Source: an uncultured virus (IMG/VR IMGVR_UViG_3300048503_000069) (lineage: Duplodnaviria > Heunggongvirae > Uroviricota > Caudoviricetes). From it: a stretch of DNA of 64,000 bases. The stretch is from the IMG/VR virus record IMGVR_UViG_3300048503_000069. One strand, written 5' to 3'. Positions 14,589-56,331 of the stretch are shown here, piece by piece. The translations under genes were made by a program, and so were the position numbers. Every line of letters begins with the position of its first letter. Positions within the stretch are counted from its first letter, which is position 1. The notes beneath the pieces were generated by a model. It ran no database searches, was not told the origin of the DNA, and saw nothing but the letters and a program-made list of their open reading frames with translations.

Positions 14589-14603
14589 CGCCCCAGGAGG
14601 CTT

Positions 14604-18978: not shown

Positions 18979-19074
18979 GGTTGAGCCATGGCTCAGTGAG
19001 AACGATTATCCTGTCTTGAAAAAAGTAGACGGCGTTCTTAACTGGGAATGGGTTATGTGGCAACTTAGGCAATT

Positions 19075-21823: not shown

Positions 21824-22812
21824 AAATATTATTTGTATGCAGAAAGCGCGGCCCCTACGGATACTTATCATCGGGGCTTTTTAATTCGGTGAAGTTTCTC
21901 GTCGATATGCTCGACGATATGGGGATAGACTCGAGAATGGTCGACGTGGTTAATAACAACCAAATCGATAAAGAAGTTAAGTCGTACCAGCCGACTCATG
22001 TTATAATAGAAGCGCTATGGGTCGTTCCTAAGAAGTTTAAAGTTCTCATGGAACTTTACCCTAATGTGGAGTGGGTCGTGAGACTTCATTCGGACATACC
22101 ATTCCTAGCAAACGAGGGTATAGCTTTTGAATGGTTATTCGAGTATATAACAAACGGGGTAACAATCGCTTCGAATAAAGAAAGCGTGGCTAAGTTGCTT
22201 ACGAAGGTTCTTCGAACGGAAGTAAAGTACCTACCGAATTATTATCCCGTCACGAATGAACCCTTCGAGCACGGTGCTAAGCACGGCGACACGCTAAACG
22301 TGGGTTGTTTCGGCGCGATTCGCCCCCTAAAGAATCAGCTCGCACAGGCGTTCGCGGCCATTCGATTCGCCGATGAACAAAATAGAAGACTAAGATTCCA
22401 TATGAACGTCGGGAGGGTCGAGGCGTGCGGCGAGACAATCGAGAGAAACATACGTGCCGTTTTTAAGAACCTTCCGGGGCATCACGAGCTTATAACTCAT
22501 AAATGGTACGACCACGACGAATTCACGAAATTATGTAAAAAGATGAATGTAGGTATGCAGGTTTCTTTTTCTGAGACCTATAATCTAGTTACTGCTGATT
22601 TCGTAAACGTAAATGTGCCAGTGGTGGTTTCTAGTGAAGTGCGGTGGGTTTCTAAAGAGTGCGTAACGAGTCCGAATAACATAGAGAGCATAGTTAAAAC
22701 GATGAGTCGAGTATTCAACGATGGTAAACTCGTTCGCGCGAATCGTGAGTTGCTCATTTGGGAAGACGTAAAAACTAAAACCGCGTGGGCGGCATTTTCA
22801 CTCGAGGGATAA
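21820..22812 (+). CDS. Glycosyltransferase (GT-B/GT4-like)
   Basis: MKILFV start, GCFGAIRPLKNQ, QVSFSETYNLV..D...VPVVVS. Confidence 0.72.
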   Translation: MKILFVCRKRGPYGYLSSGLFNSVKFLVDMLDDMGIDSRMVDVVNNNQIDKEVKSYQPTHVIIEALWVVPKKFKVLMELYPNVEWVVRLHSDIPFLANEGIAFEWLFEYITNGVTIASNKESVAKLLTKVLRTEVKYLPNYYPVTNEPFEHGAKHGDTLNVGCFGAIRPLKNQLAQAFAAIRFADEQNRRLRFHMNVGRVEACGETIERNIRAVFKNLPGHHELITHKWYDHDEFTKLCKKMNVGMQVSFSETYNLVTADFVNVNVPVVVSSEVRWVSKECVTSPNNIESIVKTMSRVFNDGKLVRANRELLIWEDVKTKTAWAAFSLEG

Positions 22813-24131
22813 TGGACGCGTTTAAAGGGCTTATTTCTGAAAAATCCGCGAGAATAGCGGTAATTGGATTAGGCTACGTCGGCTTATCTACTGCTGTTGC
22901 GTTCGCAGACGCTGGCTTTCAAACGGTCGGCGTCACGCGCACACAGAGCAAAGTAGACACATTAAACGCCGGGAATAGTTACCTACCCGACGTGCAGCGG
23001 GACACTATAATTAGCTCACTCGTCGGTAGCGGATTATTAAAGGCAACAACTAATGTAGAAGAAGCAGTTGAATGTAGCGATGTTATTATTATTACGGTTC
23101 CTACGCCGCTCACGAAGTCAATGGAACCCGACCTAACGGCGATTAAAGATGTAGGTAAACAAATAGGTAAAACATTAGATACGGGGCAGCTTATCATCCT
23201 AGAATCGACCGTCTATCCCGGCGTTACCGAAGACGTGTTAGCACCACTTCTCGAAGAATCGGGGCTTAAAGCAGGTAAAGATTTCGGATTAGCCTATTGT
23301 CCCGAGAGATATAACGTAGGAGATATAGCTCATTCTATATCGAATACGCCTCGAATCGTGGGCGGCATAACCGATGAATGGGGTAGCTTAGCGGTAGAGC
23401 TGTATCTTCATATTACAAAATACGTGTCTCTCGTTAAGAACATTAAGACCGCAGAAGCCACGAAGTTAACAGAGAACATTCAACGAGACGTAAACATTGC
23501 CTTAATGAACGAACTAGCGGTAGCATATCCAGAGATGGGGGTTGACATAGAAGACGTCATAGACGCAGCGAGCACGAAATGGAACTTTAACGTTTATAAT
23601 CCGGGCGCAGGGGTTGGTGGAGAATGTTTACCAGTTAACGCGTATTATCTCACCTACCGCGCGCAGCAGCTCGGGCATTATCTCCCACTCATACGAACCG
23701 CGCGATTAGCGAATGATGCTATGCCTTATCATGTCGTTAAACTCACACTCGACGCACTACGACAACATCAGTGTAAGATAGACGATTCGCGCGTAACGGT
23801 TCTAGGGGTGTCATACAAACCAAACATTGCAGACCGGCGCGGAAGCCCGAGCTATGAAGTTATAGATACGTTAAAGAACCACGGTGTTGAGGTGCGCGTT
23901 AGCGACCCGTACCTTCCATATAATGAGATAGAAGTTGACGTTCTCGACGACACCGATGTAATAATTCTTATGACCGCGCATATGGAATACCTAACGCTCG
24001 ATTTTAAAGAAATAAAAGAATGGGTAAGAACGCCGATTATCATCGACGGGCGTCGAAGGCTTAATGGTGAATATCTAAAAAGTTTAGGATTTACGTATAA
24101 AGGGGTAGGCGTGGTAAATGGAAGTTATTGA
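22812..24131 (+). CDS. UDP-N-acetylhexosamine 6-dehydrogenase (WecC/WbpA family)
   Basis: IGLGYVG, ITVPTP, LESTVYPG, CPER, GVGGECLP, SYKPN. Confidence 0.92.
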   Translation: MDAFKGLISEKSARIAVIGLGYVGLSTAVAFADAGFQTVGVTRTQSKVDTLNAGNSYLPDVQRDTIISSLVGSGLLKATTNVEEAVECSDVIIITVPTPLTKSMEPDLTAIKDVGKQIGKTLDTGQLIILESTVYPGVTEDVLAPLLEESGLKAGKDFGLAYCPERYNVGDIAHSISNTPRIVGGITDEWGSLAVELYLHITKYVSLVKNIKTAEATKLTENIQRDVNIALMNELAVAYPEMGVDIEDVIDAASTKWNFNVYNPGAGVGGECLPVNAYYLTYRAQQLGHYLPLIRTARLANDAMPYHVVKLTLDALRQHQCKIDDSRVTVLGVSYKPNIADRRGSPSYEVIDTLKNHGVEVRVSDPYLPYNEIEVDVLDDTDVIILMTAHMEYLTLDFKEIKEWVRTPIIIDGRRRLNGEYLKSLGFTYKGVGVVNGSY

Positions 24132-25429: not shown

Positions 25430-25951
25430 ATGAATATCTGTTCTCAGTGTCATAAGTCACACGACGGTAAGTTTAAAACGTGCGAGCCGTGTTTAGACCA
25501 CACTCGTAAATGGCGAAAGGAGAATCTTAGAAGAAATCGAGAGATAGGTCTTACGTATTATTATGCACATCAAAAAGAAATATTAGAGAAAGGCCACATA
25601 TACCGTCAAGTAAATCGAGAGAAAGAAAACGCACGTCAGCAACGGTGGCGCAAAGAGAATCCAGAACGATTAAAAGAACAGAGACAAGATAAACGATTTA
25701 TGGTGCTACAGTACTATTCGCGTAGTGATATACCCTTCTGCGACTGCTGCGGCGAAAAAACATTAGAGTTTCTATGTATCGACCATATAAGTGGAAATGG
25801 TAATGAGCATAGGCGCGAAACTAAAAAAGCGCCGATTTATGCTTGGTTAATTCAGCATAACTTTCCAGACGGATTTCGAGTTTTATGTCATAATTGTAAT
25901 CTATCATTAGGTTTTTATGGCTATTGTCCGCATAAGAGTAAAGAGGTATAA
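25430..25951 (+). CDS. Zn-finger HNH endonuclease, family A
   Basis: CDCCGE..IDHI..CHNCN..YGYCPH. Confidence 0.85.
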   Translation: MNICSQCHKSHDGKFKTCEPCLDHTRKWRKENLRRNREIGLTYYYAHQKEILEKGHIYRQVNREKENARQQRWRKENPERLKEQRQDKRFMVLQYYSRSDIPFCDCCGEKTLEFLCIDHISGNGNEHRRETKKAPIYAWLIQHNFPDGFRVLCHNCNLSLGFYGYCPHKSKEV

Positions 25952-25952
25952 A

Positions 25953-26747
25953 ATGGTGCTTAGAAGAGAATATAAGGGAGGGATAGGTCGCGTTTATGTG
26001 GATGAGAATGACCGAGAGTACCCCTCAGTAACTACCGTCTTACAGACGCTCTCAAAGGGGCCGTGGTTAGAACGGTGGCAAGACACGATGCGCGTTAACC
26101 ACTTTACAGAGACATTCGATAAACACATTGAAAGCCTCGACGGAGATACGCGTAATAAAGTAAATAAAGAAAAGGTTCATCGTATCTTTAAAAGCGCACT
26201 AGCCGCGCCTAATAATTATAGAGATATGAAGGGCGCACAGGGTGACTTTTATCATAAGATGCTCGAGTCGTATTTAAAAGACGATAAAGGCGAACATCCG
26301 GTAGAGTGGTATCTCGCGCAGGACGAGAGAGCGGAAAAGGTATTAAATAACTTTAAAAAATGGGTGTGGAAGACGCAGTTAAAACCGATAAAGGTCGAAC
26401 ATTATCTACACTCAACGAAATACGGTTTCGCTGGAACCGTTGATTTAGTTGGTACGCAGACAACAAAAGACGGCGATAAGGAGTTAGTTCTAGTAGATTT
26501 TAAGACGGGAAGCGTGCAGAAAGACCAGTTGCTTCAATTAGCCGCGTATGCTAAAGCATACGAAGAACGATTCTTCTTACGACCTAAACGAGCTTTCTTT
26601 TTAAAGGTCGACGTCGATGCGGGGTCGGTAGGTGAACAATTACGGGTAGAAAATGGCACCCTAGAACAATTATTTGAGCTATATATGTGCTCATTTAGAT
26701 TATGGTGCTGGCGGAATGATGTTAAGTTTCAAGTGTTAGATGAGTGA
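25953..26747 (+). CDS. PD-(D/E)XK exonuclease (RecB/Cas4-like)
   Basis: YPSVTTVL, AGTVDLV, VDFKTG, QLAAYA; start at ATG 25953 after GAGGT. Confidence 0.85.
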   Translation: MVLRREYKGGIGRVYVDENDREYPSVTTVLQTLSKGPWLERWQDTMRVNHFTETFDKHIESLDGDTRNKVNKEKVHRIFKSALAAPNNYRDMKGAQGDFYHKMLESYLKDDKGEHPVEWYLAQDERAEKVLNNFKKWVWKTQLKPIKVEHYLHSTKYGFAGTVDLVGTQTTKDGDKELVLVDFKTGSVQKDQLLQLAAYAKAYEERFFLRPKRAFFLKVDVDAGSVGEQLRVENGTLEQLFELYMCSFRLWCWRNDVKFQVLDE

Positions 26748-27286: not shown

Positions 27287-28456
27287 ATGAATCATACGTG
27301 TGTTTACTTCATCGCGGGGGATTCGTATTCGAACCTTCCCGAGATTAGAAGTGCAGGAATTATAGACGCCCACCTAGTTATTCATGGTGGGGGCGTAACA
27401 CCGCCAAGCCAATTCGTAAAAGACTGCATTGCAGCCGGTCTAAGCCCGATATGCAATAACGGGAACGATGGTGGTGCAGGTTGGGATGGCTCAGCTAGTT
27501 ACTACCCTAATCTATTTAATATGGGCTATCACGCGGCCGGTGGCGAATCCGAGCAAGCAAACGAGATTGATGCGATAATGAATTCTGGTATATTCCTCGA
27601 CTACGGTGGAGAAGGAACCGGCGGGGGAACCAACGACGATGTTTGGAAGGAAACACATACCGCGCCCGTTCACGGCGGGGGCTGTGCCGGTTACTACGAA
27701 ACCTACGATGGTTCCGATAACTTTTGGGGTTGGGACGTCGTAGGTAGTGGAATGAAAGACGCGAAAGCGCACGGCGTGAAAGAAATAGGCATAATGATTG
27801 GCTCGTGGATGCTAGACCACTCGACTGTGCAAGACTACATAACACTCGCGCAGACGATGGAATCTAACGGAATCACTTGTGCGGGTTTCGGGGTGTGGTC
27901 GGGCTATAATAATAACATGAATAACGTCTATAACGAGTTTGCGAGCTGGTATCAACAGCTAATGGCGATTTGGCCGCCAACAAGCATCACAATGAAGAAT
28001 CGGTTTAGTGGTCCGACACCAACGCCAACACCCACACCGGCACCAGTAGCCGCCGACGGCTCTAATCCCGCAGTAACGTATCTAAACGGCGTGAAGTATT
28101 CATTCGCTCGTGGCCTAAGTAACGCGCTATATTACCTCACCGATGGCGCGACGAAGTGGCTCTCTCTCGGTGGTACGTTAACCTCGGGAGTAGCGGCCGA
28201 AACAGTCGGTAACGAGATTTACATATTCGGTAGAGGGGCCGATAAGAAAACAACATACTATCGAACACTCACGAAAGAATGGACTTCAATCGGTGGAATC
28301 GCTACGAGTTCGCCCGGCTTAACACTCGACAGCAACGGTAAGACACTTCTCGTAGAAGTTCGCGGTGGTGATAAAGCAGTCTGGTATAGGACTCTCGATA
28401 CCACAACAGGCGCAGTATCGCCGGAGTGGCTTTCTCTCGGTGGGGTGCTTAATTGA
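27287..28456 (+). CDS. Putative hydrolase: unknown N-domain, PT linker, W-x-SLGG repeat module
   Basis: PTPTPTP linker; ARG..NALYY/WLSLGG repeats. Confidence 0.6.
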   Translation: MNHTCVYFIAGDSYSNLPEIRSAGIIDAHLVIHGGGVTPPSQFVKDCIAAGLSPICNNGNDGGAGWDGSASYYPNLFNMGYHAAGGESEQANEIDAIMNSGIFLDYGGEGTGGGTNDDVWKETHTAPVHGGGCAGYYETYDGSDNFWGWDVVGSGMKDAKAHGVKEIGIMIGSWMLDHSTVQDYITLAQTMESNGITCAGFGVWSGYNNNMNNVYNEFASWYQQLMAIWPPTSITMKNRFSGPTPTPTPTPAPVAADGSNPAVTYLNGVKYSFARGLSNALYYLTDGATKWLSLGGTLTSGVAAETVGNEIYIFGRGADKKTTYYRTLTKEWTSIGGIATSSPGLTLDSNGKTLLVEVRGGDKAVWYRTLDTTTGAVSPEWLSLGGVLN

Positions 28457-30015: not shown

Positions 30016-31144
30016 GAAAATGAAATTAAGCGACATTCTAGAGTTTATAACGTTATTCGAATTAGAGCGACTTAGTGAGGGGATTGTGGAAGTTAAAACA
30101 GAGAATGACATTTTAGCGGTTTATCACGTGTATGTAATGATATACAGCGCTTGGGAACATTATTTTAAAAACGGTAATGTATAGTTATTTCATAGGTAAC
30201 GATAAGCGAGAAGCTACCGGCTTCTGCACGAAGTGTCAGGTTCCGCTTAGTATGCGAGCTTCAACGATAGAGGGGCAGTTCTATTGTCCTTTCTGCGCGG
30301 ACTTACTTATTAGACAATATCTAGAAACGTATGGGTTCGGCTTAGCTCTCGAGAAAGACTTTAGCACAGAAAAAACGGAAAACGTGAGTCACTATGGATA
30401 AGAAGAGCGAATATTGTAGAACCGGCTGCATGTGGCTTCTTTGGACTAAACTGGGGAATCATAATAAATGTCTCTTAGATACAGAGCCGACACGGGCCGA
30501 TAACGGTTACATTTACTGCGACGATTATAAAACTTAGAAGGAGATGAGTAAGATACCCGCACACTATCATCCTTGTGCCAACTGTGCTAAGGCCCGAGAG
30601 TCGGGCTATCCGACTATGTTCTATTGTGAAGCAAAAAGCATACAAATTCCGAATGAAGAAACGATGCACGGTTGCATAACCTACGCGCCGAGAACGGACG
30701 GGCAGGTATACATATGAAACGCGACATTCTTGGCGAAACTAAGTTTTGTGTTGTATGTAAAAACGAGTTTCGAGATACGCTCGCACACTGGAATGGAAGA
30801 CTTCTCGTGTGGAAGCGCGGCCGGTCACGAACAAACTGTTGCTCAGACGTGTGTGCAAAGAAACGTAAAGCCGCACGAGACTTAGCCTATAAACGCGCGC
30901 GAACCGTAAAAAATCGCGCGAGAGAATATGAGTGAAGAAAAGCGGCATATGTGTAGAGACTGCCTAAAGGCGCTTCGCACAAGAGAAGACACAAAGAGTA
31001 GACGGTCTGAAATAAAATGTACGGTTACTAATACGTGGCTTAGTCCTTTCGCGGACACGTGTAAGCATTTTAAGCTGCGCGGCGAAGACCGAGGCATAGG
31101 TAGGGCGCTTAAGACCCTAATAGACGGAAGAGTTCAATTAAAAG

Positions 31145-31729
31145 ATGAGCGAAATAAATACTAAGGATAATCCTTATTTCATTCGTGAAGAGGAAGTTTC
31201 GTTAGACAAGCTTAAGCCTAACGAGAAAAACCCGCGAAAGCATCCCGAAGACCTTATAAAACGATTAGTCGCGAGTATAAAAGAATTCGGTAAGACCATG
31301 CCGATGATTGTCGACGAGGATTATAATATCATTGCGGGTCACGCGCGGCTTAAAGCAGCGCAGAGAATGGGCTTAACAACCTTTCCGGTTAGAGTATTCA
31401 AGTTTCCGGCCGGAAAGGATAGGGCGTATCTAATTGCCGATAATAAACTAGCCGAGATGAGTGAGTGGGATACCCCTCTTTTAGCAGATATGTTCGAAGA
31501 GCTATTAGAAGCAGGTATTCATCTCGATATAACCGCGTTTACCATAGAGGAACGCGATGAGATTATGGCCGAGCCTATGATGGCTCCCGATAGCGAATTC
31601 GGCGCGGGAGAAAAGGACTTCGTTATAGTCTCCTTTAGAATGACGAAGGACGAATTCGAGTTATATAAAGCTGATGTTGATGAGTTCATAGGAAAAACCA
31701 ATTTAACGCCCCACATACAGGAGATATAA
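31145..31729 (+). CDS. ParB/Srx N-terminal domain protein
   Basis: LKPNEKNPRKH, SIKEFG, IIAGHARLKAA, ADNKLAE. Confidence 0.88.
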   Translation: MSEINTKDNPYFIREEEVSLDKLKPNEKNPRKHPEDLIKRLVASIKEFGKTMPMIVDEDYNIIAGHARLKAAQRMGLTTFPVRVFKFPAGKDRAYLIADNKLAEMSEWDTPLLADMFEELLEAGIHLDITAFTIEERDEIMAEPMMAPDSEFGAGEKDFVIVSFRMTKDEFELYKADVDEFIGKTNLTPHIQEI

Positions 31730-32106: not shown

Positions 32107-32721
32107 GTGCGGCCGGAAGAAATAATGAAATCAATAAAAAAAGAAAAGAGACTAACTAAAAAAGAGCAGCTTCAAAAAAGAAGATATGATTTTTGGAGAC
32201 TTATGTCTCACGGCGCAACTCTAGCCGACGCCGTTAAGATGATTTCAGAGAAATACGGTGTCGGTAAAGCCGTTTTATATAGCGATTGGGCTAAACGAGA
32301 GGAATGGGGTGTCGTCGAGGAACCAGAGAAAAATAGAATAGTAAAAGATGGTCTGTTTTCATTACAAGAAACAAGACGTTATCTTTGGAATCTTATTAAC
32401 GCTTCACCAGAACAGCTTAACGAAGACGGGGTATTAGTCGACTCTCGAGGCGTGCCGATGTGGCCGTTTGAATTACCAGATGTTAAGTTAAGAGCTACTA
32501 CGATAGCGAAGATTATAGAAACAGATTTCGCGGTTATCCGAATGACGCAAAGCATAGGCATCGTTCCGCAAAAGGGAATGACTATTTCTATGTTATCCGA
32601 AAACTCTGCTGAAATAGAAAAGAACCTAGACGCGTATTGCGGTGACGATGTAGAGCTAAAAAGAGCGGTATTAGTCGCACTCGATACGATGGCGAGGGGT
32701 GTAAGTGGCGAAGACTCCTAA
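32107..32721 (+). CDS. Putative terminase small subunit (HTH)
   Basis: HTH-like N-terminus; overlaps the TerL ATPase gene. Confidence 0.5.
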   Translation: MRPEEIMKSIKKEKRLTKKEQLQKRRYDFWRLMSHGATLADAVKMISEKYGVGKAVLYSDWAKREEWGVVEEPEKNRIVKDGLFSLQETRRYLWNLINASPEQLNEDGVLVDSRGVPMWPFELPDVKLRATTIAKIIETDFAVIRMTQSIGIVPQKGMTISMLSENSAEIEKNLDAYCGDDVELKRAVLVALDTMARGVSGEDS

Positions 32722-33583
32722 ATACACACTAAAGAAAAGACCGCGCGGTAGGCCGCGTAAAGAGAAACCGGCAGCGAAAGAGAAGAAAGAATACTCTACC
32801 GATGCAGTTCGTTATCTAAAGTATAAGATGGCCCCGGACGTGTGGGTAGAAGAAAACTATGATATAACGCTCGATTCGTGGCAGAAAGAAGCATTAAACA
32901 CCCAATCGAATCGCCTACTACTTAATTGTTCAAGACAGGCGGGAAAATCGACCGTTGTTTCTCTATTAGCGCTACACCATGCGTTATTTACACCTAAAGC
33001 ATTAGTCCTCGTCGTCTCACATACGGATATTCAAGCGAAAGAAACGTTTAAGAAAATAGCCGATAGCTTCCACGACCTAAAGACCGAATGGTATAAAAGC
33101 GAAGTAGACACCGTTTATGAGATTAGGTTTAACAATAAAAGTCGTATCATAGCACGAACGGGACAACAACCAGATAGCTTACGAGGGTATAGTGGTGTTA
33201 CGCTTTTAATCATCGACGAAGCTGCATCAGTTTTAGAAGAAAGTTATATGGTTCTTAAACCAATGCTTGCCGTCTCGAAAGGAAAGGTAGTTTTGCTTTC
33301 TACGCCTAAAGGTAAACGAGGTTTCTTCTATGATGCGTATAAAGACGCGCACGAGAATAACCGAGAGAGCTGGCATTACTTAGAAATAAAAGCCGACGAT
33401 TGTCCTAGAATCACGCAAGAATACTTACTAAGTGAAAAAGAGCGCAATCCCGATTGGGTATTCGAGCAAGAATACTATTGTGTCTTCATTTCGAATGTGA
33501 GCAACATTTTTCCAAACGTTGCCGACTTATTTATAGAAATGCCCCTAGACGACCACTGGTCATTCGATTTAGACTTGGATTAA
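32705..33583 (+). CDS. Terminase large subunit, ATPase domain only
   Basis: LDSWQ, SRQAGKS, LIIDEAA, LSTP..G.FY, EQEYYCVF, then stop. Confidence 0.88.
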   Translation: MAKTPKYTLKKRPRGRPRKEKPAAKEKKEYSTDAVRYLKYKMAPDVWVEENYDITLDSWQKEALNTQSNRLLLNCSRQAGKSTVVSLLALHHALFTPKALVLVVSHTDIQAKETFKKIADSFHDLKTEWYKSEVDTVYEIRFNNKSRIIARTGQQPDSLRGYSGVTLLIIDEAASVLEESYMVLKPMLAVSKGKVVLLSTPKGKRGFFYDAYKDAHENNRESWHYLEIKADDCPRITQEYLLSEKERNPDWVFEQEYYCVFISNVSNIFPNVADLFIEMPLDDHWSFDLDLD

Positions 33584-35939: not shown

Positions 35940-36478
35940 GTTTTTTGAAGTATGCGTATATCCTCATTCACGATGACGAACCGATTGCCTTCTGTGGCTT
36001 CTCACCACCGGGGCTCGCAAACTCAGTTAGAATTCGTATTTTTCGCGGTAGCTATAAGAAAATGACGACACGAACGGCAGAAATCATTAATTCTAGGTTT
36101 ATAAACCTAAGTCGTATCGTTATCGACCCTAGATATAGGGGTGCCGGAATTGCTAGTGATTTCGTTAAAGCGTGCTGCTTATATGATGATTTAGTAAAAG
36201 AGCGATTCATCGAACTTATTACCTCGATGGGACAGATAAATCAATTCTGGAAGAAAGCCGGATTTAAAGACTACGGGCAAACGATGAGCGACACCATCGG
36301 CGGAACAGTTTCAATCGGCGGTGCTTCGCGAAAGAAGAAAGCAAAGACCGGGCAACATAATTGGCCCCACGAGAATCAGGGTGGACACGTTCGCTCAGAA
36401 ACGAAAGCTCAAAGTAAGTTGGCGGTCATGAGATACTATCTACTCGATATAAAGAAGGCTAAAGGAGAGAATAAATGA
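35841..36478 (+). CDS. GNAT acetyltransferase domain reached by -1 shift at A9
   Basis: -1 frame is open from the A9 run: KISFYNN..WNRFSKWHYRG..LSRIVIDPRYRGAGIA. Confidence 0.72.
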
Positions 36479-36723
36479 TAAAAATATATTCACTGCCGGT
36501 ATGTCCGAATTGTAAAGTATTAAAAACCACCTTAAAAGAACGTAACATTACGTTCGAAGAGGAAGAACTCGGAACACCCAAAGTAAAAACAGAAATGCTT
36601 ATGCACCACGTTTTTACAGACATGGCACCAGTACTTCGTGTTGATGATAAATATTATACCTCTATAGAAATCTTTAATGAAAAAGGAGATGTAAAGGTAG
36701 ACATACTAAATACGCTATCGTAA
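36475..36723 (+). CDS. Glutaredoxin-like protein
   Basis: IYSLPVCPNCKVLK, APVL. Confidence 0.85.
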   Translation: MIKIYSLPVCPNCKVLKTTLKERNITFEEEELGTPKVKTEMLMHHVFTDMAPVLRVDDKYYTSIEIFNEKGDVKVDILNTLS

Positions 36724-37108
36724 AATGGCAGACCCTAATACATTAGTAATAAACGACGGAGTAAGCGACTACTCGACTGAACCAATACTAGAACAGTGTC
36801 TAACCTGCGAGCACGTAAAACTAGACGACGTGCAGGGCGGGGGTCTAGTCTATAATGTTACGTGCGGCGCGTTTCATACGCCGTATCTTAAATTCACGGC
36901 AGAAGGAGAAGGAGATACACTTGTTGTTACCGAAGAGCATTGTAAATATCGCGTACGAATAAGAGATGAAAAATGACAACATGGACATTTCCGCCGGAAC
37001 TCCAAGTGGAAAAGCGATAAACTGTGGAACGATTGGCATTGTCTAGTAGAATATTATGGTACGATGTGTTTTCAAAAGAAAAGAAGGACTATATGGCTTC
37101 CTTAGACG

Positions 37109-38852
37109 AAAAATCCGCGAGAGAATAGTATGTGGATACTACACGACACGACATTTACCTTTTTTGATGATGTATTTATTTTTAGTAAAGCGTTCGAAGT
37201 AATAGGCCGCCCTAGTTACGTGATTCTTCATTGGCAGAACGAAAATATTGCACATTCGATTGTTGATGAAGAGTCATATCGACAAACAAAGGATAAATTA
37301 CATAATTTAGCTAAGAGATTGCTATCGAGAGATTTATGGCAAATGGCTGATTATCATAAAGCGCTTGCTAGGCCGATTATAACGCCCGAAGTCGTTGAAA
37401 GACTAGAATCGCTTGTAGGCACGCGCATATATCGAGACTTAGTCACAGGCATAGAAACGCGCGAAGCCTACTACGGTGAAAAATCGCGAGGGAAAAGATA
37501 TGACTAAACTAATAATTAGCATAAGTGATGAAAACATAGCGTGCTGGGAAGAATATAAACTAGATTTAGCTTATGAAGCGCGAAGATGGGCCGAAAAAAG
37601 AGAAGTTAAGCTCGGTAAAATAATAATAACCGACGATGAAGCTATCTCGGGACTTTTCGACTGCGTAGAAGAGGAAGGAATTTTCTGTTGGGACCTTCTA
37701 TGGAAAATCGTAGAACGAAATGCTTTAGAAGGCGAATTAGAGCCACAATAACGAAAAATCCGCGCGGGAATAACATGCCGAATTGTAAAGATTGTGAAAA
37801 TAACGTATTACCTAACTATTGGCCTCCGTGTGCGTTTAGCGCGCCTAAGAACATAAAGATGCACGATAAAGAGTGTTCAAAATTTACTCCTATGAAGTTT
37901 CCGCATACCTTTTGGCGCGGAATGTCTCATGGCGGCTGTTACATCATAAACGAAAAAAGAGAGGTCATAAACGACATTAAATTCGGCCCGTATGACTAAA
38001 AATCCGCGTGTGAGAAGAAATGACTAACGAATCGTTTGATATAATAACAGAAATTAAATACGCCGACCGTATAACAGGGGATATCGTCGAATATGCTAAA
38101 GGCATGGACTCTACAGGAAAAATACATTATTTCTTATTAGAACCGATGGGTACTAAAACTCGCTGGACTGAATTAAACGAATATGCCTATGAGAAAAATA
38201 AATTCGATATGAAAGATTTATTTATGATTGTTCCGAACGAAATAAACCACGTAAAGACTCTCTAGACTAAAAAATCCGCGTGTGAGATGAAATGACTAAC
38301 GACACACAATTTATTATAAAAACATTCCATAACGATAGTGTGTATATTAACGACGCTATAGACTTAGAAATATCCGACGTAGGCGAATACGACCTTTTAG
38401 CCTTAATGAGATTAATCATAATAGAACTAGAGACTCGGCATCTAATCCCGCAAGATATGGCGTATGAATACTAAAAAATCCGCGAGTGAGCTAAACGATG
38501 ATTAAAAAGTCTAAACGAATCGAAACTAAAGAAGTCGAGGACGTTACCTACATCTGCGACCGCTGTGGTAAGGCGGCAAAACGAGGCAATTATACTCCCG
38601 CACTTCGAGAATGTTGCATATGTGGTCGGTGGATTTGTCGTTCCTGCGCTATCGGTTTTGACTCACTTGAATACGAGGGGTATGCTTATGACCGCCCGTA
38701 TTATCGTGCCTGTCGTGAATGTTTAGATGCTGGCGATTATAGGCAACGAATAAAAGAAGCACAAGAAAACGCAGATATGATAAAGGCCGCTGTTTTAAAA
38801 GAATGGAGAATGGCGTCTAAAGTGAAAAATTTCGCGAGAGAGTAGAATAATG
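37109..38852 (+). repeat. Seven AAAAAT(C)CGCG-type motifs, each just upstream of an ATG
   Basis: Motifs at ~37109, 37479, 37754, 37998, 38269, 38473, 38825; ATGs at 37130, 37500, 37775, 38020, 38292, 38498, 38850. Confidence 0.85.
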
Positions 38853-38999
38853 AGCCTAAGAGAAGTACCATGTATCACCTGTAACTATAACATGGAATAT
38901 TACACTCGTAGTAACGGAAGACTAGAACACTGTGGAGCGAAATGTCTTCGATTAAGAAAAAGGAGAGCCGTAGCTCAGGCGCCTCCAGCGACCTACTAA
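38850..38999 (+). CDS. Small Cys-containing protein (49 aa, not in the ORF track)
   Basis: MSLREVPCITCNYN..HCGAKC; follows the seventh motif. Confidence 0.55.
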   Translation: MSLREVPCITCNYNMEYYTRSNGRLEHCGAKCLRLRKRRAVAQAPPATY

Positions 39000-40398
39000 A
39001 CTGAAAAAACATAGCTCGACCCTCTCGGCATACATCTTCACACACGAAAGGTATTAGGGTGGCGTATCATCCCTATAACGGCCTTCTTTGCACTTCGAAA
39101 AAAGAAAGGATAAGGTAGTTGCTAGGTGACGCTACATATCGATAGGTAGGGGTCGAAAAAAGAAAAGAAAGAATAACATCCGGCGAAGTTTAGGTTTAGG
39201 GGCTGTGAAGCGCTTCGATACCTCTTTTTCTAGATGAGCACCTAAGGTTAATAATGAATAACGCCTACACTTCTTTCTTTTTTCTAACGAAGCAATATGT
39301 CTCGGGTAAGTTCTTTAACGAAGCCCGTAGCGGCCATTTCTGAAAATGTTGATAAAGAGAAATAACGGTGACTGCCACACCTTCCGTTAGCGCTTTATTC
39401 CCGCGATGTAGGAACAATGCTCATCGGTGCGTGTGGTCGAGGCCGTTAAGATACAAAAGAAGGGTAAGGTATCTTCATCACCACGACTCGCGCGATGAAC
39501 GTGCGGGTAGGTAACGGACAACAGAACGGACAACCAACGGACAACTAATCGGCCACTCTCAACCCGACCACCCGGCTACAACCGATGACTCATTGGGTGG
39601 TGTGGCATTGGTGGAGTGTGGGCCTAGAGGCAAGAAGGCCACTAGGGGTAGTATGTCACCCACTACACCATTAGACATAGCCACACTCTCCTTCTCTTCA
39701 TCACGAGACGAGGGTGAGTCGGGTGGGTGAGGGCGAGTCGCGGGTAGAAGGCCACTCAGCGACTTGGCCACTATGCCATCCGAGAAGGTAGGTGTAGTCT
39801 ATAGATAGGCGGGTGGTGTAGAGTAGACTGATGGGTGTGATAAGGTGGTGGGCTAAAGGCCACACGGCCACGTGGGCCACATAGCAACAGAGATGAGGCT
39901 AGTCTTTGTTAGTTCGTGCATCGAAGAGACGACGAGCGATGGGCTAGGGAAAGAAATACTAGCAAGGCAACTATAGTATCATCCCTTTATTAATTCTTTA
40001 ACCCAACCGAGCCACCGGCCTAGGTAGGGGGGTAGGTATACACGGAGAGTAGTTACGGGTGACATATCTTGGGCTATAGGCCGACCGACGGATAAAAGGC
40101 CGGCGTTATGGCGACCAATTAAAAGAAATCTGCTGGAAAAAATGAGTCTCGCCACCAATCAGGGCGTGCAAACAGGCAATACGCCCTTCGGGAACGGCGT
40201 CAATTTTTCGGAATTCTCTAGAATCTTCGTAGTAAATTCGAAAGTAGCAAAACGGCGATTCGGTTTCCTAGGCGGTGATAATTTTTCCGAAAATCGAGTC
40301 GAGTAAGGAATCGTGCCTTTATATACCCCTACTCGTGTTAACATATGTTAATTTCCTTTACGAAATATATATAACATATTCCGCACTATAGAAATTAT
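39000..40398. other. Long non-coding region with AACGGACAAC x3 and GGCCAC x7
   Basis: No credible ORF; direct repeats 39513-39545; co-oriented GGCCAC 39551-39880. Confidence 0.7.
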
Positions 40399-40876
40399 AT
40401 GTGGACGTGCAGTTGCGGTAGAAACTTTATCGCTCGACCTGACGCTACGGGTGAACTACGAACAAAGTGCAGTACGTGTCTAAGTGAAGAGCACCGTAAA
40501 CTTCCCGAAGTTATGGAACAAACGCGCGCGCGAGAAAGAAGATGGTATGCTAAACATATAGACTACCGGCGAGAGTATCAGCGAAATTATCGCGCGCGTC
40601 GTAGGGGTGCGTAACGGTGGCCCACTGTGCGGGTTGCGGTAAGACGTTTATCGCGAAGAAAAAGAAATTGGCTCGAGCTAATAAACGAATATTCGAAGCG
40701 CATACGCTATGTTCGCTATGTAAGCATAAAGAATATAATAAGGCGTGGAGAGATAAAGTTGTTATCTAAGGTAGTGATGGAAATTGGAATATATTTCATA
40801 AGCGGTATTCTAGCGATAGGACTTATAATTACTGAAACTCTTTTATTTATAGAACTAAAGCTTAAGAACCAAAAGA

Positions 40877-41632
40877 ATGCCACGTAGAGCGCCAATTTGG
40901 GGTCTTGAACATCTTTCAGATGATGAATACAAGACATCTTTAGAGGGTCGATATAAGGATAGAGAACTCCCGACAGAAGCCACACTAAAAGCGCGTAAGG
41001 AAAGCCAAGAGAAACGCGAAAAAATAGTTATAGTTGGCATAGACCTCGGAAAGGAGGTTGATGCAACTGTTTTAGCCATCGTCGAACCAACCGAGAACTA
41101 CGAAAATCCTATTTATCTAGTGCACAATGTTATCCCCGTCCGCTTAGGGACAAGTTACGCAACGATAATAAGTAGTGTTGCGGCACTCGACGAACAGCTT
41201 CGTCTCCGTAAGAACGCAATTGATGTTAAGTACGTAGTAGACGCCGGGGGTGCGGGGGGCGTCGTCGATAGTCTCGAAGAAGCGCTGCCTAAAGCGGATA
41301 TTTATAAGGTGCATATAACCTCGGGGTACGAATCCACTATCCATGATGATTTTAAAATCGGGCTCCCTAAACGCGAGTGGGTCACCACCCTTAAAAAAGT
41401 ATTAGAAGCGAAAAGAGTTAGGTTTCATTATATCGACGACGACGGTAGAAGAGATTCGGGGATGAGACTCTTAGAAAACGAAATTAACAATTTTCAGATG
41501 AAGATTTCTCAAACGGGATACGATAAATACGAAGCAAGTAGCGGACATCACGACGACGCGGTTCAAGCATTAGGGTTAGCCATCTGGTTCGGCGAGCGTG
41601 AAGCGGGGCGTGGGCCGTTACGAATATGGTAG
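40877..41632 (+). CDS. Terminase large subunit, RNase H-like nuclease domain only
   Basis: VGIDLGKEVDATVL, VVDAGGAG, HHDDAVQALGLA. Confidence 0.82.
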   Translation: MPRRAPIWGLEHLSDDEYKTSLEGRYKDRELPTEATLKARKESQEKREKIVIVGIDLGKEVDATVLAIVEPTENYENPIYLVHNVIPVRLGTSYATIISSVAALDEQLRLRKNAIDVKYVVDAGGAGGVVDSLEEALPKADIYKVHITSGYESTIHDDFKIGLPKREWVTTLKKVLEAKRVRFHYIDDDGRRDSGMRLLENEINNFQMKISQTGYDKYEASSGHHDDAVQALGLAIWFGEREAGRGPLRIW

Positions 41633-42689: not shown

Positions 42690-45600
42690 AGTAGCACATA
42701 AGAAACTCGACATTAGCGAGTTACGAGCAACGCTTAAAGAACTAGCGGAAGACACGGTCTTCGAGGACTTCGACGATTTTACAATTTCTATAGTCGGTAA
42801 AGAAGTACCCCCTAAAGAAGTAAGGCTAGTATTCTAAGATGGCCCCGCTAAGCACGGCAACAAGCGTAGCAATATCCTTACCAGCAATAGTAATTGCTTT
42901 TTGGTTAACAACAACGCACTTCGCGCAGCCCACTACGCTATTCGGCTTCATAGGCGCGGGTATCGTGGTATACCTACTGTTCTTAGTCTTCTGCTTAATT
43001 ATCGGGGTGCCTATGTATCTACTATCGGAGCAAATAAACAAGTGAGCACGAGACAAAACGATTTTTTCACCTACGCGGAGTTTATTATGATGTTGATTAT
43101 TATATTCGGCATCTACTATGGTGCGATGGTGGTAGGTAGATGATAGAACTCCTTAAGCGAATCTGGTATAGAATAAAAGGATTTAAGGTATTCAAAAACA
43201 CCGGCTATGAGATTCTAGCAATATCAGGTAACGATTGGATAAGCATACAATATTCAAACCAACGCGGCGAGAAGCCGATAGACATCTTAACAGATAAAGA
43301 CGCGCGGATAGTTATAGGCCCATTCCCGGCACGGAAGTTCGGTAAGAGTCTTTTCGTAGACGCTGGAAAAAATAACGTAGAGCGAATAAAAGTCCCGAGA
43401 GTATAGATGAGAATAACAATAACCTGTCCCGATTGTAACACCCAAATGGTGTTCTTTCACGGCGATATTATAAACAACCAGAGAGCAACAATAACCGCTC
43501 AGTCTGAATGTCCTATATGCGCGGCGCATTTCGTTGTAACGGTAATCATAGAGCGAGAACGGTTAACAAGTGTTAACTTCGAAGAAGACGATGAGGACGA
43601 AGATGGAAGGTAAGTATTGGATGTATTTCATCCTCGGGCTACTCGTGCTTTTAATAGCCGCTGGCGCGCTCGGGTGGAAATGAAAGAGATTTGGCTCGAG
43701 AAGCCGACGTTCTCCGGTCGAATACCTAATACATTAATTAGAGGGTATGTATTTCCCGACCGATACTATGAACATACGTGGGTGCTTTGTGCAGACCTCA
43801 CCGATGAAACGTTAGAAGAGGAATTCGATGGGATTTTGTCAAGAGGATGAAGAAGAGAGAGACGGTAGCGACGATGCGTGTACCGTTGGTAAAGATGAAA
43901 CCGGCGAAGAGATAGCCACGTGTGAAGAGTGCTGTTTATTCGAAGAGCGAGACTAAATGCTAAAAGACTATAAACAACCAATCGTCTACGCGCAAAACGA
44001 CTTAGCTATTCTTAGAAGTAAAAAAATGGTCATAGGGGTTTCTTACGAACTCGAAATGGACGCCGAGGCGTGGGTATTCACCAAGACAAGTAAAAACATA
44101 ATCGAAATTCGTAGTCGTAAAGACGATAAAAAAGAGAAAGGGACTAAGAAAAAGAAAGTGAAATCAGTAAAGCCAGCAGAGATACTCAATGAAACAGACG
44201 CCGAAGCCGTGTGAGAGCTGTAGATTTTATAATGGGTTTAATATGCCGCTAAGCGGAAAGCATTACTTTTGTTGGCTAAAGCATCGCCCTCGTAACGACG
44301 AATGTAATCATTTTTTAGAACTATGACGATTTGCGAAACATGCACAAATGAAAAGTGTCCGTATCCTAAAGATTATAGACTTCTTAAAAGTAGGTACGGA
44401 AGTTGTATTCACTTTCGAGAGAGGGAAACTAAATGGGAATCTGTACCGTAGTATCACAACAAATGGAGATACACACGGCCTCGTATATCACGAGAGCCAT
44501 AGATAACGAACCGGCTTTCATAGCTGAAGAAATAATTGCACGTGTTTCGAAGATGCACAACGACGTACTAGCTGGAAAACTTGAGGTAGACGAAATTAAA
44601 TTTTCGTGGCCGTATTAAAATGAGATATAGCGTCGCTGGCGGAAAGGGTGTTAACGTCTCCGTTCACATCACGAAACCAGACCTTTCACACGATAAATAT
44701 TATGAGTCTACCGTGTGCTTCGAAGCACCGAAAGACTTTAACGTAGGCATATACGCGGAAGCACTTTTACAACTTACTGAAAAGGCATTACGAGGTGAAG
44801 ACCTCGGCGTGAGGTTTACTAAAGAAAGCATATGTCACGAAAACATAAAGAAACTGCCGAAGTACCGCGGGTAAATCAAGAAAAGAACGCCGTACCAATA
44901 CCCTCGTCGGTTAGCGTTAGTGACTCGCTTGATGAATTAAAAGACTTATTCGCGAAAGCTTTCGAGCACGAGCACTCAAAAAAGATACTCCTAGAAGCGA
45001 TTGAGAAACTAACTGGTCAAATAGATGAGTGTAATAAACAGCACGAGGAAGACCAAGCGATAATTAACATTCTTCTTAATACCCTCGAATACGAGCCGAA
45101 ACTAACGCGGTTTAGAACATGGTTGAAGAAATAACCTGCCCGTATTGTCAAAGTCCTTTAGACATAAAGGGTGCTTTTAGAAATGCTATCGTTATCGTAA
45201 GCTGTAGTAAATGCGAGAGCTGGTGGCTTACGGTGCCGAATCGATTTACGCGAGAACTTAAGGCTTTGCTTCTCGAGAAAGCAACGTTGCGAGAACGGCT
45301 TTTCGGTATTAAATATAAAGGAGAGAATAAATGATGGAGAATATACCTATAGACGACGCGGCGATTCGAGACGGATTTGTTCATAATCTTCTTATCGTTA
45401 TCGGCGCGATTACAGCCGCGGAGATGAATAAGAACGGCCGACAGATGGTATTCAACACGCTAATAGAGTTAATGGCGTACCTACAGAACCCTTCAAGCGT
45501 TACCGAAGTTACACCCGTAGCGCCTATGAATATGTATCAGTAATATGTCAATAATGAAATACATAGGAGTTAGAAGCCTATATAGCGGTAAGGATATGGT

Positions 45601-48564: not shown

Positions 48565-49812
48565 ATGAGTAAACCATTTAGAAGAGGCTTAGGCTGTAAT
48601 CGTGACCCGCCCCACAAGGACGCACCGCGCCTACTAAGCCGCGAACAGATAGAAAAACTCCCGGCGAGTTATATGATTAAAGACTTAACTCCTGTGGGTG
48701 ACCAAGGAAACGAAGGGTCCTGCACAGGTAACGCTGGTGACAACGTATATAAAATCCGCGACGCTATGATAAACGGAACGTTTGTTAACGGTGCGCGGCA
48801 GCAGATTTATCAGTGTGCCTTAGCCCACGACGGCAATCCATTTCAGGATGTGGGCTCTAGTCTATCAACAATAGCGTGGGTTCTCCAGAACGTCGGTGTT
48901 GCGCCTGAGTCGGAGTTTCCGTACACTGGGGGAATGCAGGGCGCAGTTCCAACCGCCGTACTTAACGACGCTAAGAAACACGAAGCCACAAAAGAACTAC
49001 GTCTCGACGCAACAGATGAAACCACAACAATAGCTAACGTTAAAGCGGCAATCGCACCAAACGCAGTTATACAATCTAGTTACCCGGTCATGTTCGGCTT
49101 TGACGTGCCTGAGTCTTTCTTTAACACTGGTTCATCAGGTAATATGCCCACTCCTAGCGGTGGCATTGCAGGTGGCCACGCTAACGTTTTCATAGGCTAC
49201 GACGACGCACATACGGGTAACTATGACGGAAGCAAAGGCGCGTTTTATATTAAGAACAGTTGGGGCTCTGGTTGGGGTGCTAATGGGTATTGGTATATGC
49301 CCTACTCGTTTTTCCTAGATACCGACGATGGGGTCGGTGACTGTTGGGCCATAATAAATACCTCGGACTTTAACCCTAGCCCCACACCCGGTCCCGCGCC
49401 AGTAGCAGCAGATGGCTCGAATCCTGCAACGTGTGTCGTTAATGGAACAACGTATGCGTTTGGGTGGGGTTTAAGCAACGCGCTTTACTATGCCATTCTA
49501 GGTGGTAATACGTGGAAGTCTCTCGGCGGAACGCTAAGCTCTGGTGTCGCAGCGGTTACCGTGGGTAATGACGCATATATCTTCGGACGTGGCGCGAATA
49601 AAGAAACGCTTTATTATCGAACGCTTACGAAGAATTGGGTCACGGTGCCTATGGGAACCCTAGTCGCGACGTCAGCACCGGCAGTAACCGCGAGTAACGG
49701 TATCATAGCACTCGAGGTTCGTGGCGGCGATAAGGCAGTCTGGTATGTTACGCTTAATACCGCTACTGGTGCGTTCGGTAAGTGGACAAGTCTAGGTGGT
49801 CAGCTAAACTAA
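48565..49812 (+). CDS. Papain-like C1 cysteine peptidase plus W-x-SLGG repeat module
   Basis: DQGNEGSC, GGHAN..GYDD, KNSWG catalytic motifs. Confidence 0.88.
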   Translation: MSKPFRRGLGCNRDPPHKDAPRLLSREQIEKLPASYMIKDLTPVGDQGNEGSCTGNAGDNVYKIRDAMINGTFVNGARQQIYQCALAHDGNPFQDVGSSLSTIAWVLQNVGVAPESEFPYTGGMQGAVPTAVLNDAKKHEATKELRLDATDETTTIANVKAAIAPNAVIQSSYPVMFGFDVPESFFNTGSSGNMPTPSGGIAGGHANVFIGYDDAHTGNYDGSKGAFYIKNSWGSGWGANGYWYMPYSFFLDTDDGVGDCWAIINTSDFNPSPTPGPAPVAADGSNPATCVVNGTTYAFGWGLSNALYYAILGGNTWKSLGGTLSSGVAAVTVGNDAYIFGRGANKETLYYRTLTKNWVTVPMGTLVATSAPAVTASNGIIALEVRGGDKAVWYVTLNTATGAFGKWTSLGGQLN

Positions 49813-50049: not shown

Positions 50050-50688
50050 ATGAGTAAAGCGTGTTCGATATGCGGGGCGTTATTCGAATCTAAGCAATTT
50101 AAAACCTGTGATAAATGTCGCGCTCGGACGCGCGATTGGAAAAAGGCCAATCATAAAAAGAATAGTGAATATAACCGTAAATATCGAATAATAAATAAGG
50201 TTAGATTAGTAGAATACGCACATAAATATTATATGATTAATCGCGAGCAGATTTGTAAAAAAGCACAAGAGTATAAGAAACTAAATCACGATGAGATACT
50301 AAAACGCGGTTTAATTTACCGCGAAGCAAATCGCGAAAGAGAAAATAAACGTAGCTGTTTATGGTTAAAAGTTAATCGTGAGAAATGTAGAGTACAGGAA
50401 CACACTCGACGCGCGAGAATTAACGGAAGTAGTGGCTCTTACTCTCTACAAGAAGAGATGGAATTGTTTACTTGGCAGGAAGGTAAATGTCATTATTGTG
50501 GTAACTTTCTATATCTCTCATACCCACAGAAATATCATATAGACCATAAAACACCGTTATCGCGTGGCGGTTCTAATCTAATCGACAATATCGCGCTATC
50601 TTGTAAGTTCTGTAATATACGTAAAGGTACTAAAACTGAATTAGAATTCTTTAAGTTTTTAGTTAAAAACGAGGAAAAAAATGAGTAA
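50050..50688 (+). CDS. HNH endonuclease, family B
   Basis: WQEGKCHYCG..HIDHKTPLSRGGSN..NIALSC..CN. Confidence 0.88.
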   Translation: MSKACSICGALFESKQFKTCDKCRARTRDWKKANHKKNSEYNRKYRIINKVRLVEYAHKYYMINREQICKKAQEYKKLNHDEILKRGLIYREANRERENKRSCLWLKVNREKCRVQEHTRRARINGSSGSYSLQEEMELFTWQEGKCHYCGNFLYLSYPQKYHIDHKTPLSRGGSNLIDNIALSCKFCNIRKGTKTELEFFKFLVKNEEKNE

Positions 50689-51303
50689 AGATAGTATTCC
50701 CATTAGGCCCGTAGACGGAAGCGACGCGCCGAAAGACGCCCCGATAATGGTAAATCCAAATAATCTCATGGGCTTCACGATAACGGTAGAGAATCCACCC
50801 ACTAATAATCGAAAAGCCTTTGTTGTTTTCTTAGTGATTCTCGCGATAACGTTTCTTATGGGTGTAATGGTGCAAGCGCAGTTTCATCTAGTATGAGTAA
50901 AAACCCGTTTGATTACATCGTCTTTGACCTAAAATTCGCGCTAAGAAGATTCTGCGCGGCTAACGGATTAAACTACGACCTTATGACCTTCGAGACACTT
51001 AAGCACGAAGAGAAAAGAAAAGGTAGGATGGTCTTTACGCTCGAAGCGCGCTCGATTGAAACAGAGAAACACCCTAACCCGAACGGAAGGTATGTAGTAG
51101 TGCATTTCACTACACCACCGGGGTTATACGCGCGGATAAAAGGAGTGAGATGAGCGAGCTAATCTGTGGCTCGTGTCAGCATTATAGGCTCTTTTATCCG
51201 CGAGCGAATACGTTTCGAACGTATTGCGAGATTCTATGGCACCTGCATAGTAATGATGTATGTTATCAGCGTTCGGATTATAGAATGAGCGATTGGTTAT
51301 AAA

Positions 51304-56326: not shown

Positions 56327-56331
56327 GGACG

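Follow-up and report, generated by a model that had tools for sequence, protein, structure and literature searches.

The stretch of DNA analysed here (the window; 64,000 nucleotides, IMG/VR record IMGVR_UViG_3300048503_000069) derives in large part from an uncultured tailed phage and carries, between 37,109 and 38,999, a tandem array of seven small genes (g1 to g7) that point in one direction, lie 4-26 nt apart or overlap, and are each preceded by a copy of the same short motif (m1 to m7), with an outlying copy (m0) ahead of the gene that starts at 30928. Comparative evidence from one sister lineage suggests that this motif marks points at which single-gene cassettes are exchanged. The reading that we favour, and hold to be probable, if only just, treats the motif as an expression leader that is portable and associated with gene starts; being repeated, it would supply the short stretches of homology through which cassettes are exchanged.

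The motif forms a real and discrete class of sites. A relaxed regular expression (A4-6 T (Y) CGCG N G N G A) finds eight copies on the plus strand of the window and none on the minus strand, all of them before an ATG and none at a structural gene. Within the array the copies follow one another at 370, 275, 244, 271, 204 and 352 bp, and the A-runs of m0 to m7 begin 20, 21, 21, 21, 22, 23, 25 and 25 nt, respectively, upstream of their start codons—an arrangement that the sequence-only reading had reported for seven consecutive ATGs and for a further copy preceding 30928, and that both the regular expression and a weight matrix confirm. The strict 15-mer AAAATCCGCGNGNGA, with at most one mismatch, occurs five times against 0.20 expected, a number reached in 0/100 shuffles. 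In a position-weight scan of the whole window the eight sites score 20.2-26.9 bits and the next best site, which is not at a gene start, 15.7 bits; the matrix was built from the same eight sites and two from relatives, so that the scan is partly circular and its result is the gap, not the scores. The same scan revealed no weak extra copies at other gene starts of the window.

A near-identical virus record (G001, 80.5 kb) has nine copies, eight in the array and one at the equivalent of 30908, and the motif is absent from the remaining ~95 kb of phage and from two distant relatives. It is also not common genome-wide elsewhere, the pattern AAAATYCGCGNGNGA having 0 copies in a 5.1-Mb metagenome-assembled genome (MAG) and 0 in an 86.8-kb related phage. 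Across IMG/VR, a scan with the single motif AAAAATCCGCGNGNGA gave at least 120 stretches and was uninformative, the 80 listed having one match each except for one with two; a two-motif pattern with a gap of 232-262 nt gave 14 stretches, with arrays only in the contig of G001 (8 copies) and in that of the sister lineage, L023 (4 copies). Two other candidate arrays were rejected: L148 has two copies in a contig of 68% GC, neither of them ahead of an ATG, and L152 is an unrelated tandem repeat of 329 bp.

Alignment of 14 copies anchored on CGCG (eight from the window, one extra from G001 and five from L023) yields the logo A-A-A-A-(A)-T-(Y)-C-G-C-G-h-G-d-G-A-R, which can be written as A4-6 T(Y)CGCGNGNGA. 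The CGCG lies 9-14 nt before the ATG and on the coding strand in 8/8 window copies and in the six others. Among the ten non-orthologous copies, three A positions, the CGCG and the G residues at +5 and +7 never vary, and the intervening positions +4 and +6 show three different bases each; the boundary between A-run and T is moved by one base in 3/14 copies, information content is at most 0.5 bit at -12 to -8, and the sequence upstream of the A-run is unconserved. Such a bimodal pattern of conservation argues for selection and against the decay of a relic.

The genes behind these leaders are mutually unrelated, as had been noted from the sequence: in an all-versus-all BLASTP of 18 proteins, E values below 0.05 were obtained only for orthologues between the two lineages, and the best other pair reached E = 0.056. 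Only one of the 12 cassette proteins of both lineages, g6, has a family match in PHROG or Pfam (Prok-RING_2, E 1e-4, 22.9 bits against a cut-off of 22.4); the two homologues of g6, 52-54% identical, are confined to short metagenome contigs, its protein cluster represents 14 contigs, of which the longest has 92,764 bp, and the sole database homologue of g4 among 5.8 billion proteins is g4 itself. Two copies of the motif (m2 and m7) lie inside the coding sequence of the upstream gene. Some copies share more than the core: a direct repeat of 33 nt (37998-38030 and 38270-38302, 97% identical) flanks g4 and extends 11 nt into the reading frames of both g4 and g5 (MTNE/MTND), so that the long shared stretch described in the sequence-only reading is real, with 33 nt at 97% identity measured in place of ~37 nt. 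A leader is also found on a gene that relatives carry without it. The gene at 30928 has counterparts in the distant relatives L168 (60% identity) and L162 (40%; both by tblastn), where the motif is absent; here the leader and seven extra codons (MSEEKRH) precede the conserved start MCRDC, which indicates that the leader can move onto other genes. Ahead of the first cassette, a gap of 153 nt (36977-37129) contains only short open reading frames (ORFs), which end inside m1; the gap may be what is left of a cassette since lost.

Searches of viral, metagenome and genome collections with three proteins (portal, ABC-like ATPase and the nuclease half of the large terminase) yielded two near-identical records (G001 and L144), a single sister lineage (L023, known from the end of a 26.9-kb contig and 80-94% identical in shared genes) and distant relatives without the motif (L019/L161/L168 and L162). 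A stretch of 488 bp at 38971, present in G001 and L144, is missing in the window; it holds the end of g7, a ninth motif copy (m8), a 47-aa gene (g8) and an AT-rich spacer, and its loss from the window accounts for the shorter g7 there (49 aa, as opposed to 67 aa in G001, L144 and L023).

Blockwise alignment with L023 reveals four differences (g2 replaced, g4 replaced, g6 present or absent, g8 replaced), and 6/7 of the visible breakpoints fall inside motif copies. Homology starts at 37755, inside m3, with an unrelated 84-aa gene upstream in the place of g2; it spans g3 and ends at 38002 in the A-run of m4, where an unrelated 72-aa gene replaces g4; it resumes at 38270 in m5, continues through g5 into m6 up to CGCGAG.GAGC, and from there jumps to the 3′ part of m7 and on through g7, g6 being missing. 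The single copy that L023 has at this point (1030-1060) is directly seen to be a chimera, matching m6 on its 5′ side (20/21) and m7 on its 3′ side (13/13). Past g7, homology extends through m8 to the ATG; g8 itself gives way to an unrelated 36-aa gene, and similarity returns only with the g8 stop codon. Under a uniform null (seven breakpoints, motifs making up ~8% of the sequence) 6/7 would be very unlikely, but this null is too generous, because selection alone would keep only in-register events, and we do not rely on it.

The crossover point varies among these junctions (the A-run in m4, the position after CGCGAG.GAGC in m6/m7, the ATG at m8), which fits general homologous recombination on a short leader and not a site-specific system. 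The 33-nt repeat around g4 is exactly the trace expected of one crossover involving a circular or misaligned copy. Recombination is most likely driven by homology and not targeted by an enzyme. In integrons, the integrase IntI recombines attC with attI, attC sites being imperfect inverted repeats that form a hairpin 3′ of each gene. A comparable dedicated system, in which a recombinase would recognise the motif and excise or insert single-gene circles, seems to us very improbable here. The array does resemble an integron in its single, unrelated, co-oriented genes, each unit being bounded by the repeated element and gene content differing between lineages at the motif, and the mini-circles of promoter-early stem-loop (PeSL) cassettes offer a precedent for circular intermediates (PMC2839356). 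However, PHROG and Pfam scans of 61 + 24 + 20 window proteins turned up no tyrosine or serine recombinase and no integrase, in line with the earlier remark that no integrase is visible, but only the mobile-element pair tnpA/tnpB of IS200/IS605 and HNH endonucleases; repeat analysis found no attC-type or other inverted repeat at the junctions, and the element has no foldable structure, no fixed crossover point, and, unlike attC, lies 5′ of the gene and carries the ribosome-binding site. The sequence-only reading had interpreted the copies as recombination joints for acquiring or shuffling cassettes. This is partly supported: comparison with a related genome places gene gain and loss exactly at the motif in L023, with 6/7 breakpoints and a chimeric copy, whereas a joint dedicated to this purpose is disfavoured because the crossover varies, inverted repeat and fold are lacking, insertions and deletions without the motif occur elsewhere, and the 488-bp deletion lies off the motif.

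Table 1 Features of the array, of its surroundings and of the terminase loci compared. Positions refer to the window unless another sequence is named; motif rows start at the first base of the A-run and gene rows of the array at the ATG.
Feature	Position	Strand	Details
Motif m0	30908..30927	+	AAAAAATCGCGCGAGAGAAT; outlying copy directly ahead of ATG; 24.1 bits
78-aa Cys-rich gene	30928..31164	+	just upstream of ParB-like gene
Motif m1	37109..37129	+	25.8 bits
g1	37130..37507	+	125 aa; ORFan, no PHROG/Pfam match; 3′ end reads through m2
Motif m2	37479..37499	+	AAAAATCGCGAGGGA; Y position missing; within g1 end; 20.2 bits
g2	37500..37751	+	83 aa
Motif m3	37754..37774	+	
g3	37775..37999	+	74 aa; Cys-rich; kept in L023, 88% aa identity
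Motif m4	37998..38019	+	left copy of repeat flanking g4
g4	38020..38265	+	81 aa
Motif m5	38269..38291	+	right copy of repeat flanking g4
g5	38292..38474	+	60 aa; kept in L023, 95% aa identity
Motif m6	38473..38497	+	5′ part in chimeric L023 copy
g6	38498..38845	+	115 aa; zinc-ribbon/RING-like; 3′ end reads through m7
Motif m7	38825..38849	+	AAAAATTTCGCGAGAGAG; 3′ part in chimeric L023 copy
g7	38850..38999	+	
Large terminase, ATPase half	32705..33583	+	left border of block; Pfam Terminase_6N E 3e-18; T4 gp17 ATPase E 1e-10
Large terminase, nuclease half	40877..41632	+	right border of block; Pfam Terminase_6C E 1.2e-3, below cut-off
Terminase halves in L019	12149-12997 and 13343-14152		
Terminase halves in L162	7636-8496 and 9968-10717		
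SSB-like protein	18019-18525		
PD-(D/E)XK exonuclease	25917-26747		
ParB-like gene	31145-31729		ParB N-terminal domain only
IS200/IS605 tnpA/tnpB pair	55931-57432		inside phage

As to what the leader might do, its 3′ purine tract pairs with the anti-Shine-Dalgarno sequence at a mean of -3.82 kcal/mol in the eight motif genes; the mean is likewise -3.82 kcal/mol in the other 76 genes with an ATG start, and -2.25 at 500 randomly chosen positions, the anti-Shine-Dalgarno sequence being a generic one that may not be the 16S end of the host. By this measure the tract is an ordinary ribosome-binding site. Terminator-like sites number 0 in 36400-41000, which, together with the packed, co-directional genes, fits a single message. 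Frameshifting or slippage on the A-run was considered and rejected, the upstream stop codon preceding or overlapping the A-run in most junctions.

The geometry of the 14 copies (AAAAAT followed, after six bases, by an invariant G between variable positions) raises another possibility, namely that each copy is a minimal promoter of one gene class, with homology-based exchange as in the favoured reading—in effect a compact PeSL. AAAAAT would be the -10 element, (Y)CGCG a GC-rich discriminator and the invariant G seven bases past the T the transcript start, predicting leaders of 8-13 nt that begin with the purine tract. The usual spacing from -10 to transcript start is 6-8 nt, and since the distance from AAAAAT to G fits it, a minimal class-specific promoter is a serious rival, though on balance an unlikely one. 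It would tolerate the one-base shift of the A/T boundary, and it would give every small gene its own copy, as in PeSL arrays (PMC2839356). Against this, there is no -35 element and no TG extension; a sigma-70 scan of 36400-41000 gave six sites, below the 9.0 expected, only one of which overlaps a motif (38822-38851, 9/12); neither terminators nor stem-loops separate the genes; two copies lie within upstream coding sequence; and neither the structural operons nor any of the other small genes that look early carry the motif, which would call for a dedicated factor, and none is evident.

Alternatively, the copies could be historical scars, left by insertions that duplicated an old junction (stop codon, ribosome-binding site, start codon), with serial duplicative insertions stacked upon one another and an ordinary ribosome-binding site as the only function. 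The repeat flanking g4, which includes the first 11 coding bases, is of the kind expected, as is the sequence GAGTAGAATAATGAG that m7 and m8 have in common into the start codon; elsewhere in the phage, an HNH gene (50050-50688) sits between 14-nt direct repeats (AAAAAATGAGTAAA) at two gene starts. However, neutral decay should spread changes evenly, and the ten non-orthologous copies have eleven invariant positions beside saturated ones; moreover, the leader is also found 6 kb away at 30908 on a conserved gene, and two copies have been kept despite lying in coding sequence. Scars are therefore an improbable explanation of the motif.

A further alternative treats the copies as DNA sites, bound either by a phage regulator in the manner of stoperators or by a packaging or partition protein of the TerS or ParB kind, whose occupancy would keep the block silent or organise it. 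Stoperators of the L5-like Cluster A mycobacteriophages occur in both genome arms, are bound by the repressor and block elongation; the copies here share with them short asymmetric sites in short intergenic spaces and in the direction of transcription, but are tied to start codons, and no repressor is known. That sites of this type have one orientation and occupy such spaces (PMC3203893), that the outlying copy lies beside the ParB-like gene and the array between the terminase halves, and that some copies contain the palindromes TCGCGA, TCGCGCGA or CCGCGCGG would agree with binding to DNA. Yet the dyad is not conserved over the 14 copies, the irregular spacing of 204-370 bp tracks gene length, a DNA site would not need to keep its distance from the ATG to within 5 nt, neither a repressor nor an integrase module turned up, and the ParB-like protein consists of the N-terminal domain only. 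Sites for TerS, ParB or packaging, which the sequence-only reading had offered as an alternative, find no support, the motif being strand-specific and tied to start codons, and we regard DNA sites of either type as having only a very slim chance of being the explanation.

We therefore return to the leader as a signal at the level of mRNA, associated with gene starts on a polycistronic message, exchange following as a consequence of its repetition. This is preferred because the genes are tightly packed, two copies lie in upstream coding sequence and the motif is absent from all other small genes. The purine tract (GNGNGAR) would serve as a Shine-Dalgarno sequence of ordinary strength, and the invariant AAAA(A)T-(Y)-CGCG box would be recognised in the mRNA, whether by the ribosome or by a factor of phage or host origin, acting in translation and setting a common regime for one class of small accessory genes. 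Near-identical leaders of ~20-35 nt, one per cassette, would be the only homology between otherwise unrelated genes, and general recombination between copies, within a genome or between co-infecting relatives, could delete, insert or replace single genes in register, each incoming gene bringing a working start region with it. The PD-(D/E)XK exonuclease and the SSB-like protein encoded by the phage count in favour of such recombination, and regulatory junctions that act as recombination points have a precedent in the PeSLs of T4-type phages (PMC2839356).

Several observations weigh against this interpretation. The comparison rests on the sole informative sister lineage in the collections searched, in a contig that ends inside the array and shows four differences only. 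Selection by itself would leave breakpoints at gene borders, and the 488-bp deletion of the window has neither breakpoint in the motif. Whole-gene insertions and deletions also occur between the same two lineages at start regions without the motif (43143-43404, 50056-50689 and 50895-51147), which points to exchange at gene starts as a general trait of this phage group. On the functional side, the invariant A-run and CGCG are left unexplained by pairing with a generic anti-Shine-Dalgarno sequence, we know of no rRNA pairing for AAAAAT or CGCG, and RNAalifold predicts 0 pairs over the 14 junctions and hence no common fold. A single-strand annealing protein was also not identified, the one candidate looked at (27287-28456) having given only a weak beta-propeller lead (<0.9, Atlas) and been rejected. 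The array stands out by how long and how constant its shared junction is, and by the chimeric copy.

The genes that correspond to the indels outside the array (43140-43406, 50050-50688 and 50893-51153) are present in the window and absent in L023, with edges at start codons, and several neighbouring genes start with ATGAGTAAA.

Among known systems, the PeSLs of T4-type phages come closest to the array junction in what they do (Arbiol et al. 2010, PMC2839356; Comeau et al. 2014, PMC4122927). Both are repeated regulatory junctions ahead of small ORFans in a hyperplastic region, extending from the upstream stop codon via the Shine-Dalgarno sequence to the start codon; in both, the insertions, deletions and replacements that set close relatives apart have their limits at the repeat, with a chimeric copy where a gene is missing, and homologous recombination between copies is the proposed mechanism. 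The array junction is nevertheless not a PeSL. PeSLs have ~100 bp of conserved sequence with a consensus sigma-70 promoter and a stem-loop terminator, as opposed to ~17 nt here (at most 33 between some copies) with no -35/-10 hexamers, stem-loop or terminator, and PeSL copies are spread over many regions, as opposed to one tandem array in an unrelated phage.

In what the element looks like, the closest system is that of the start-associated sequences (SAS/ESAS) of Cluster K mycobacteriophages (Pope et al. 2011, PMC3203893), whose function was still called unverified in 2025 (PMC12699233). Both are short, asymmetric, one-orientation motifs a few bases before the ATG of non-structural genes of different families, sometimes with the upstream stop codon inside; both are group-specific and absent from the host. 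SAS combine a Shine-Dalgarno-like core with invariant positions that rRNA pairing leaves unexplained, as the motif here may do. The sequences differ, however: the Cluster K SAS is GGGATAGGAGCCC, to which there is no match with two or fewer mismatches here, and the phages are unrelated. SAS occur in 11-19 copies dispersed over half the genome, in contrast to 7-8 tandem copies and one outlier here, where the invariant part lies upstream of the purine tract and ESAS-like inverted repeats are missing. The passages of PMC3203893 available describe no role as a recombination joint.

Small ORFans abound in phage genomes and turn over readily, and the way in which they are exchanged without damage to their neighbours is known for few groups. 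In the present case, a shared start leader of 17-33 nt appears to be enough to mark exchange points without the promoter and terminator parts of a PeSL. It adds an example to the unexplained start-associated sequences, with a core that is simple and mutable (A-run, CGCG, alternating G). Should a factor bind this core, the swappable accessory genes behind it would form a regulon; they could, as a guess, be genes for anti-defence or takeover. A bolder version, to which we give little credence, would make the array a phage-borne gene-capture device, in which a phage factor recognises the box, placing all captured ORFs under a uniform switch, translational or transcriptional, and promoting the exchange of single-gene circles among co-infecting phages; if true, this would be a minimal, integrase-free counterpart of the integron in a tolerated gap of the split terminase.

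The array indeed lies between the two halves of the large terminase, which are 7.3 kb apart in the window, the gap being filled by an accessory block (an HD-domain protein, an ABC-type ATPase, a GNAT protein, a glutaredoxin, the array and a 1.4-kb ORF-poor stretch). For the nuclease half, an AlphaFold model (pLDDT 67) gave Foldseek matches to the terminase nuclease domains of PhiV-1, HSV, HCMV, G20c, T4, RB49 and Sf6 (E 2.6e-6 to 1e-4). The halves are separate ORFs in the distant relatives as well, 345 nt apart in L019/L168 and 1.5 kb apart, with a 385-aa ORF in between, in L162. None of the array cassettes occurs in the 20-kb terminase loci of the distant relatives, so that the array is a lineage-specific accessory block at an insertion-tolerant site. 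The terminase is encoded in two ORFs across the whole clade, and the lineage-dependent length of the gap makes the split point a hot spot for insertions. The genes for the ABC-ATPase, the GNAT protein and the glutaredoxin lie on the other side of the ATPase half from where L168 has them.

The ORF-poor stretch directly follows the array (39000-40398; ~1400-2960 in L023) and, at 69-77% identity, is less conserved than the flanking genes; folding of 39000-39900 gave z = -2.18 (20 shuffles), and Rfam returned 0 families at gathering score in the window, with only a chance-level snoRNA match in 36900-40900 (E 0.84). In G001 and L144 it is preceded by an AT-rich segment of ~230 nt with the palindrome GTATATAC, lost from the window. 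The stretch might serve as an origin or in packaging, or encode a structured RNA. Antisense control of the leaders by this region (39000-40876) was considered and gained no support: in best duplex energy, 0/8 leaders exceeded the best of 25 background chunks on the plus strand, and on the minus strand 2/8 did so, only marginally.

Base composition divides the window at ~15 kb, from ~60% GC on the left to ~43% on the right. Positions 1-14970 consist of bacterial genes (NAD synthase, M20 peptidase, ABC ATPase, sugar transferase and several transposases, three of the DDE type), and the remainder, from 14971 to the window end, is 99.9-100% identical to G001, where tail and replication genes extend leftward and the bacterial stretch is not present. 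The window from 14971 on is thus an uncultured tailed phage of 43% GC. Two truncated ORFs meet at the junction, one for an IS110-type transposase (14604-15071) and one for the N-terminus of an IS605 OrfB/TnpB (14970-15461, minus strand), and the join is either an assembly chimera at mobile elements or one mediated by insertion sequences.

The phage genes, nearly all on the plus strand, encode by PHROG and Pfam scans an SSB-like protein, a DNA methyltransferase, a PD-(D/E)XK exonuclease and a ParB-N-domain protein, as well as terminase, portal and head-morphogenesis proteins, at least eight HNH endonucleases and an IS200/IS605 pair. The portal of this long-tailed uncultured lineage has at most 31% identity with that of any isolated phage, to none of which the phage is thus related, and blastn of 36000-40500 gave no match among GenBank phages. 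One distant relative is on a contig of a Candidatus Korobacteraceae (Acidobacteriota) MAG, and the lineage may infect Acidobacteriota. Unusual cargo includes a papain-family (Peptidase_C1) cysteine protease of 415 aa (48565-49812) and a UDP-glucose dehydrogenase beside a glycosyltransferase-like protein (21820-24131). A 62-aa ORF (18890-19078) has the same first codons as tnpA and similar upstream sequence and looks like a second, truncated copy, and G001 has a further tnpB (27345-28454, minus strand).

Finally, the 20.7-kb locus of L168 (MAG contig G002:C5) has 29 copies of the heptamer CCCGCGA on the coding strand and two on the other, inside genes and in all three frames (8, 6 and 10), and 11 of the 27 genome-wide matches of the 10-mer GCCCCGCGAA lie on one 95-kb contig (L168); the phage of the window has no such bias (3 versus 2). 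Not being tied to gene starts, this word is treated as separate from the leader motif. It is oriented, dispersed and phage-specific, and raises the question of whether it acts as a Chi-like signal or sets the polarity of a translocase or of packaging.

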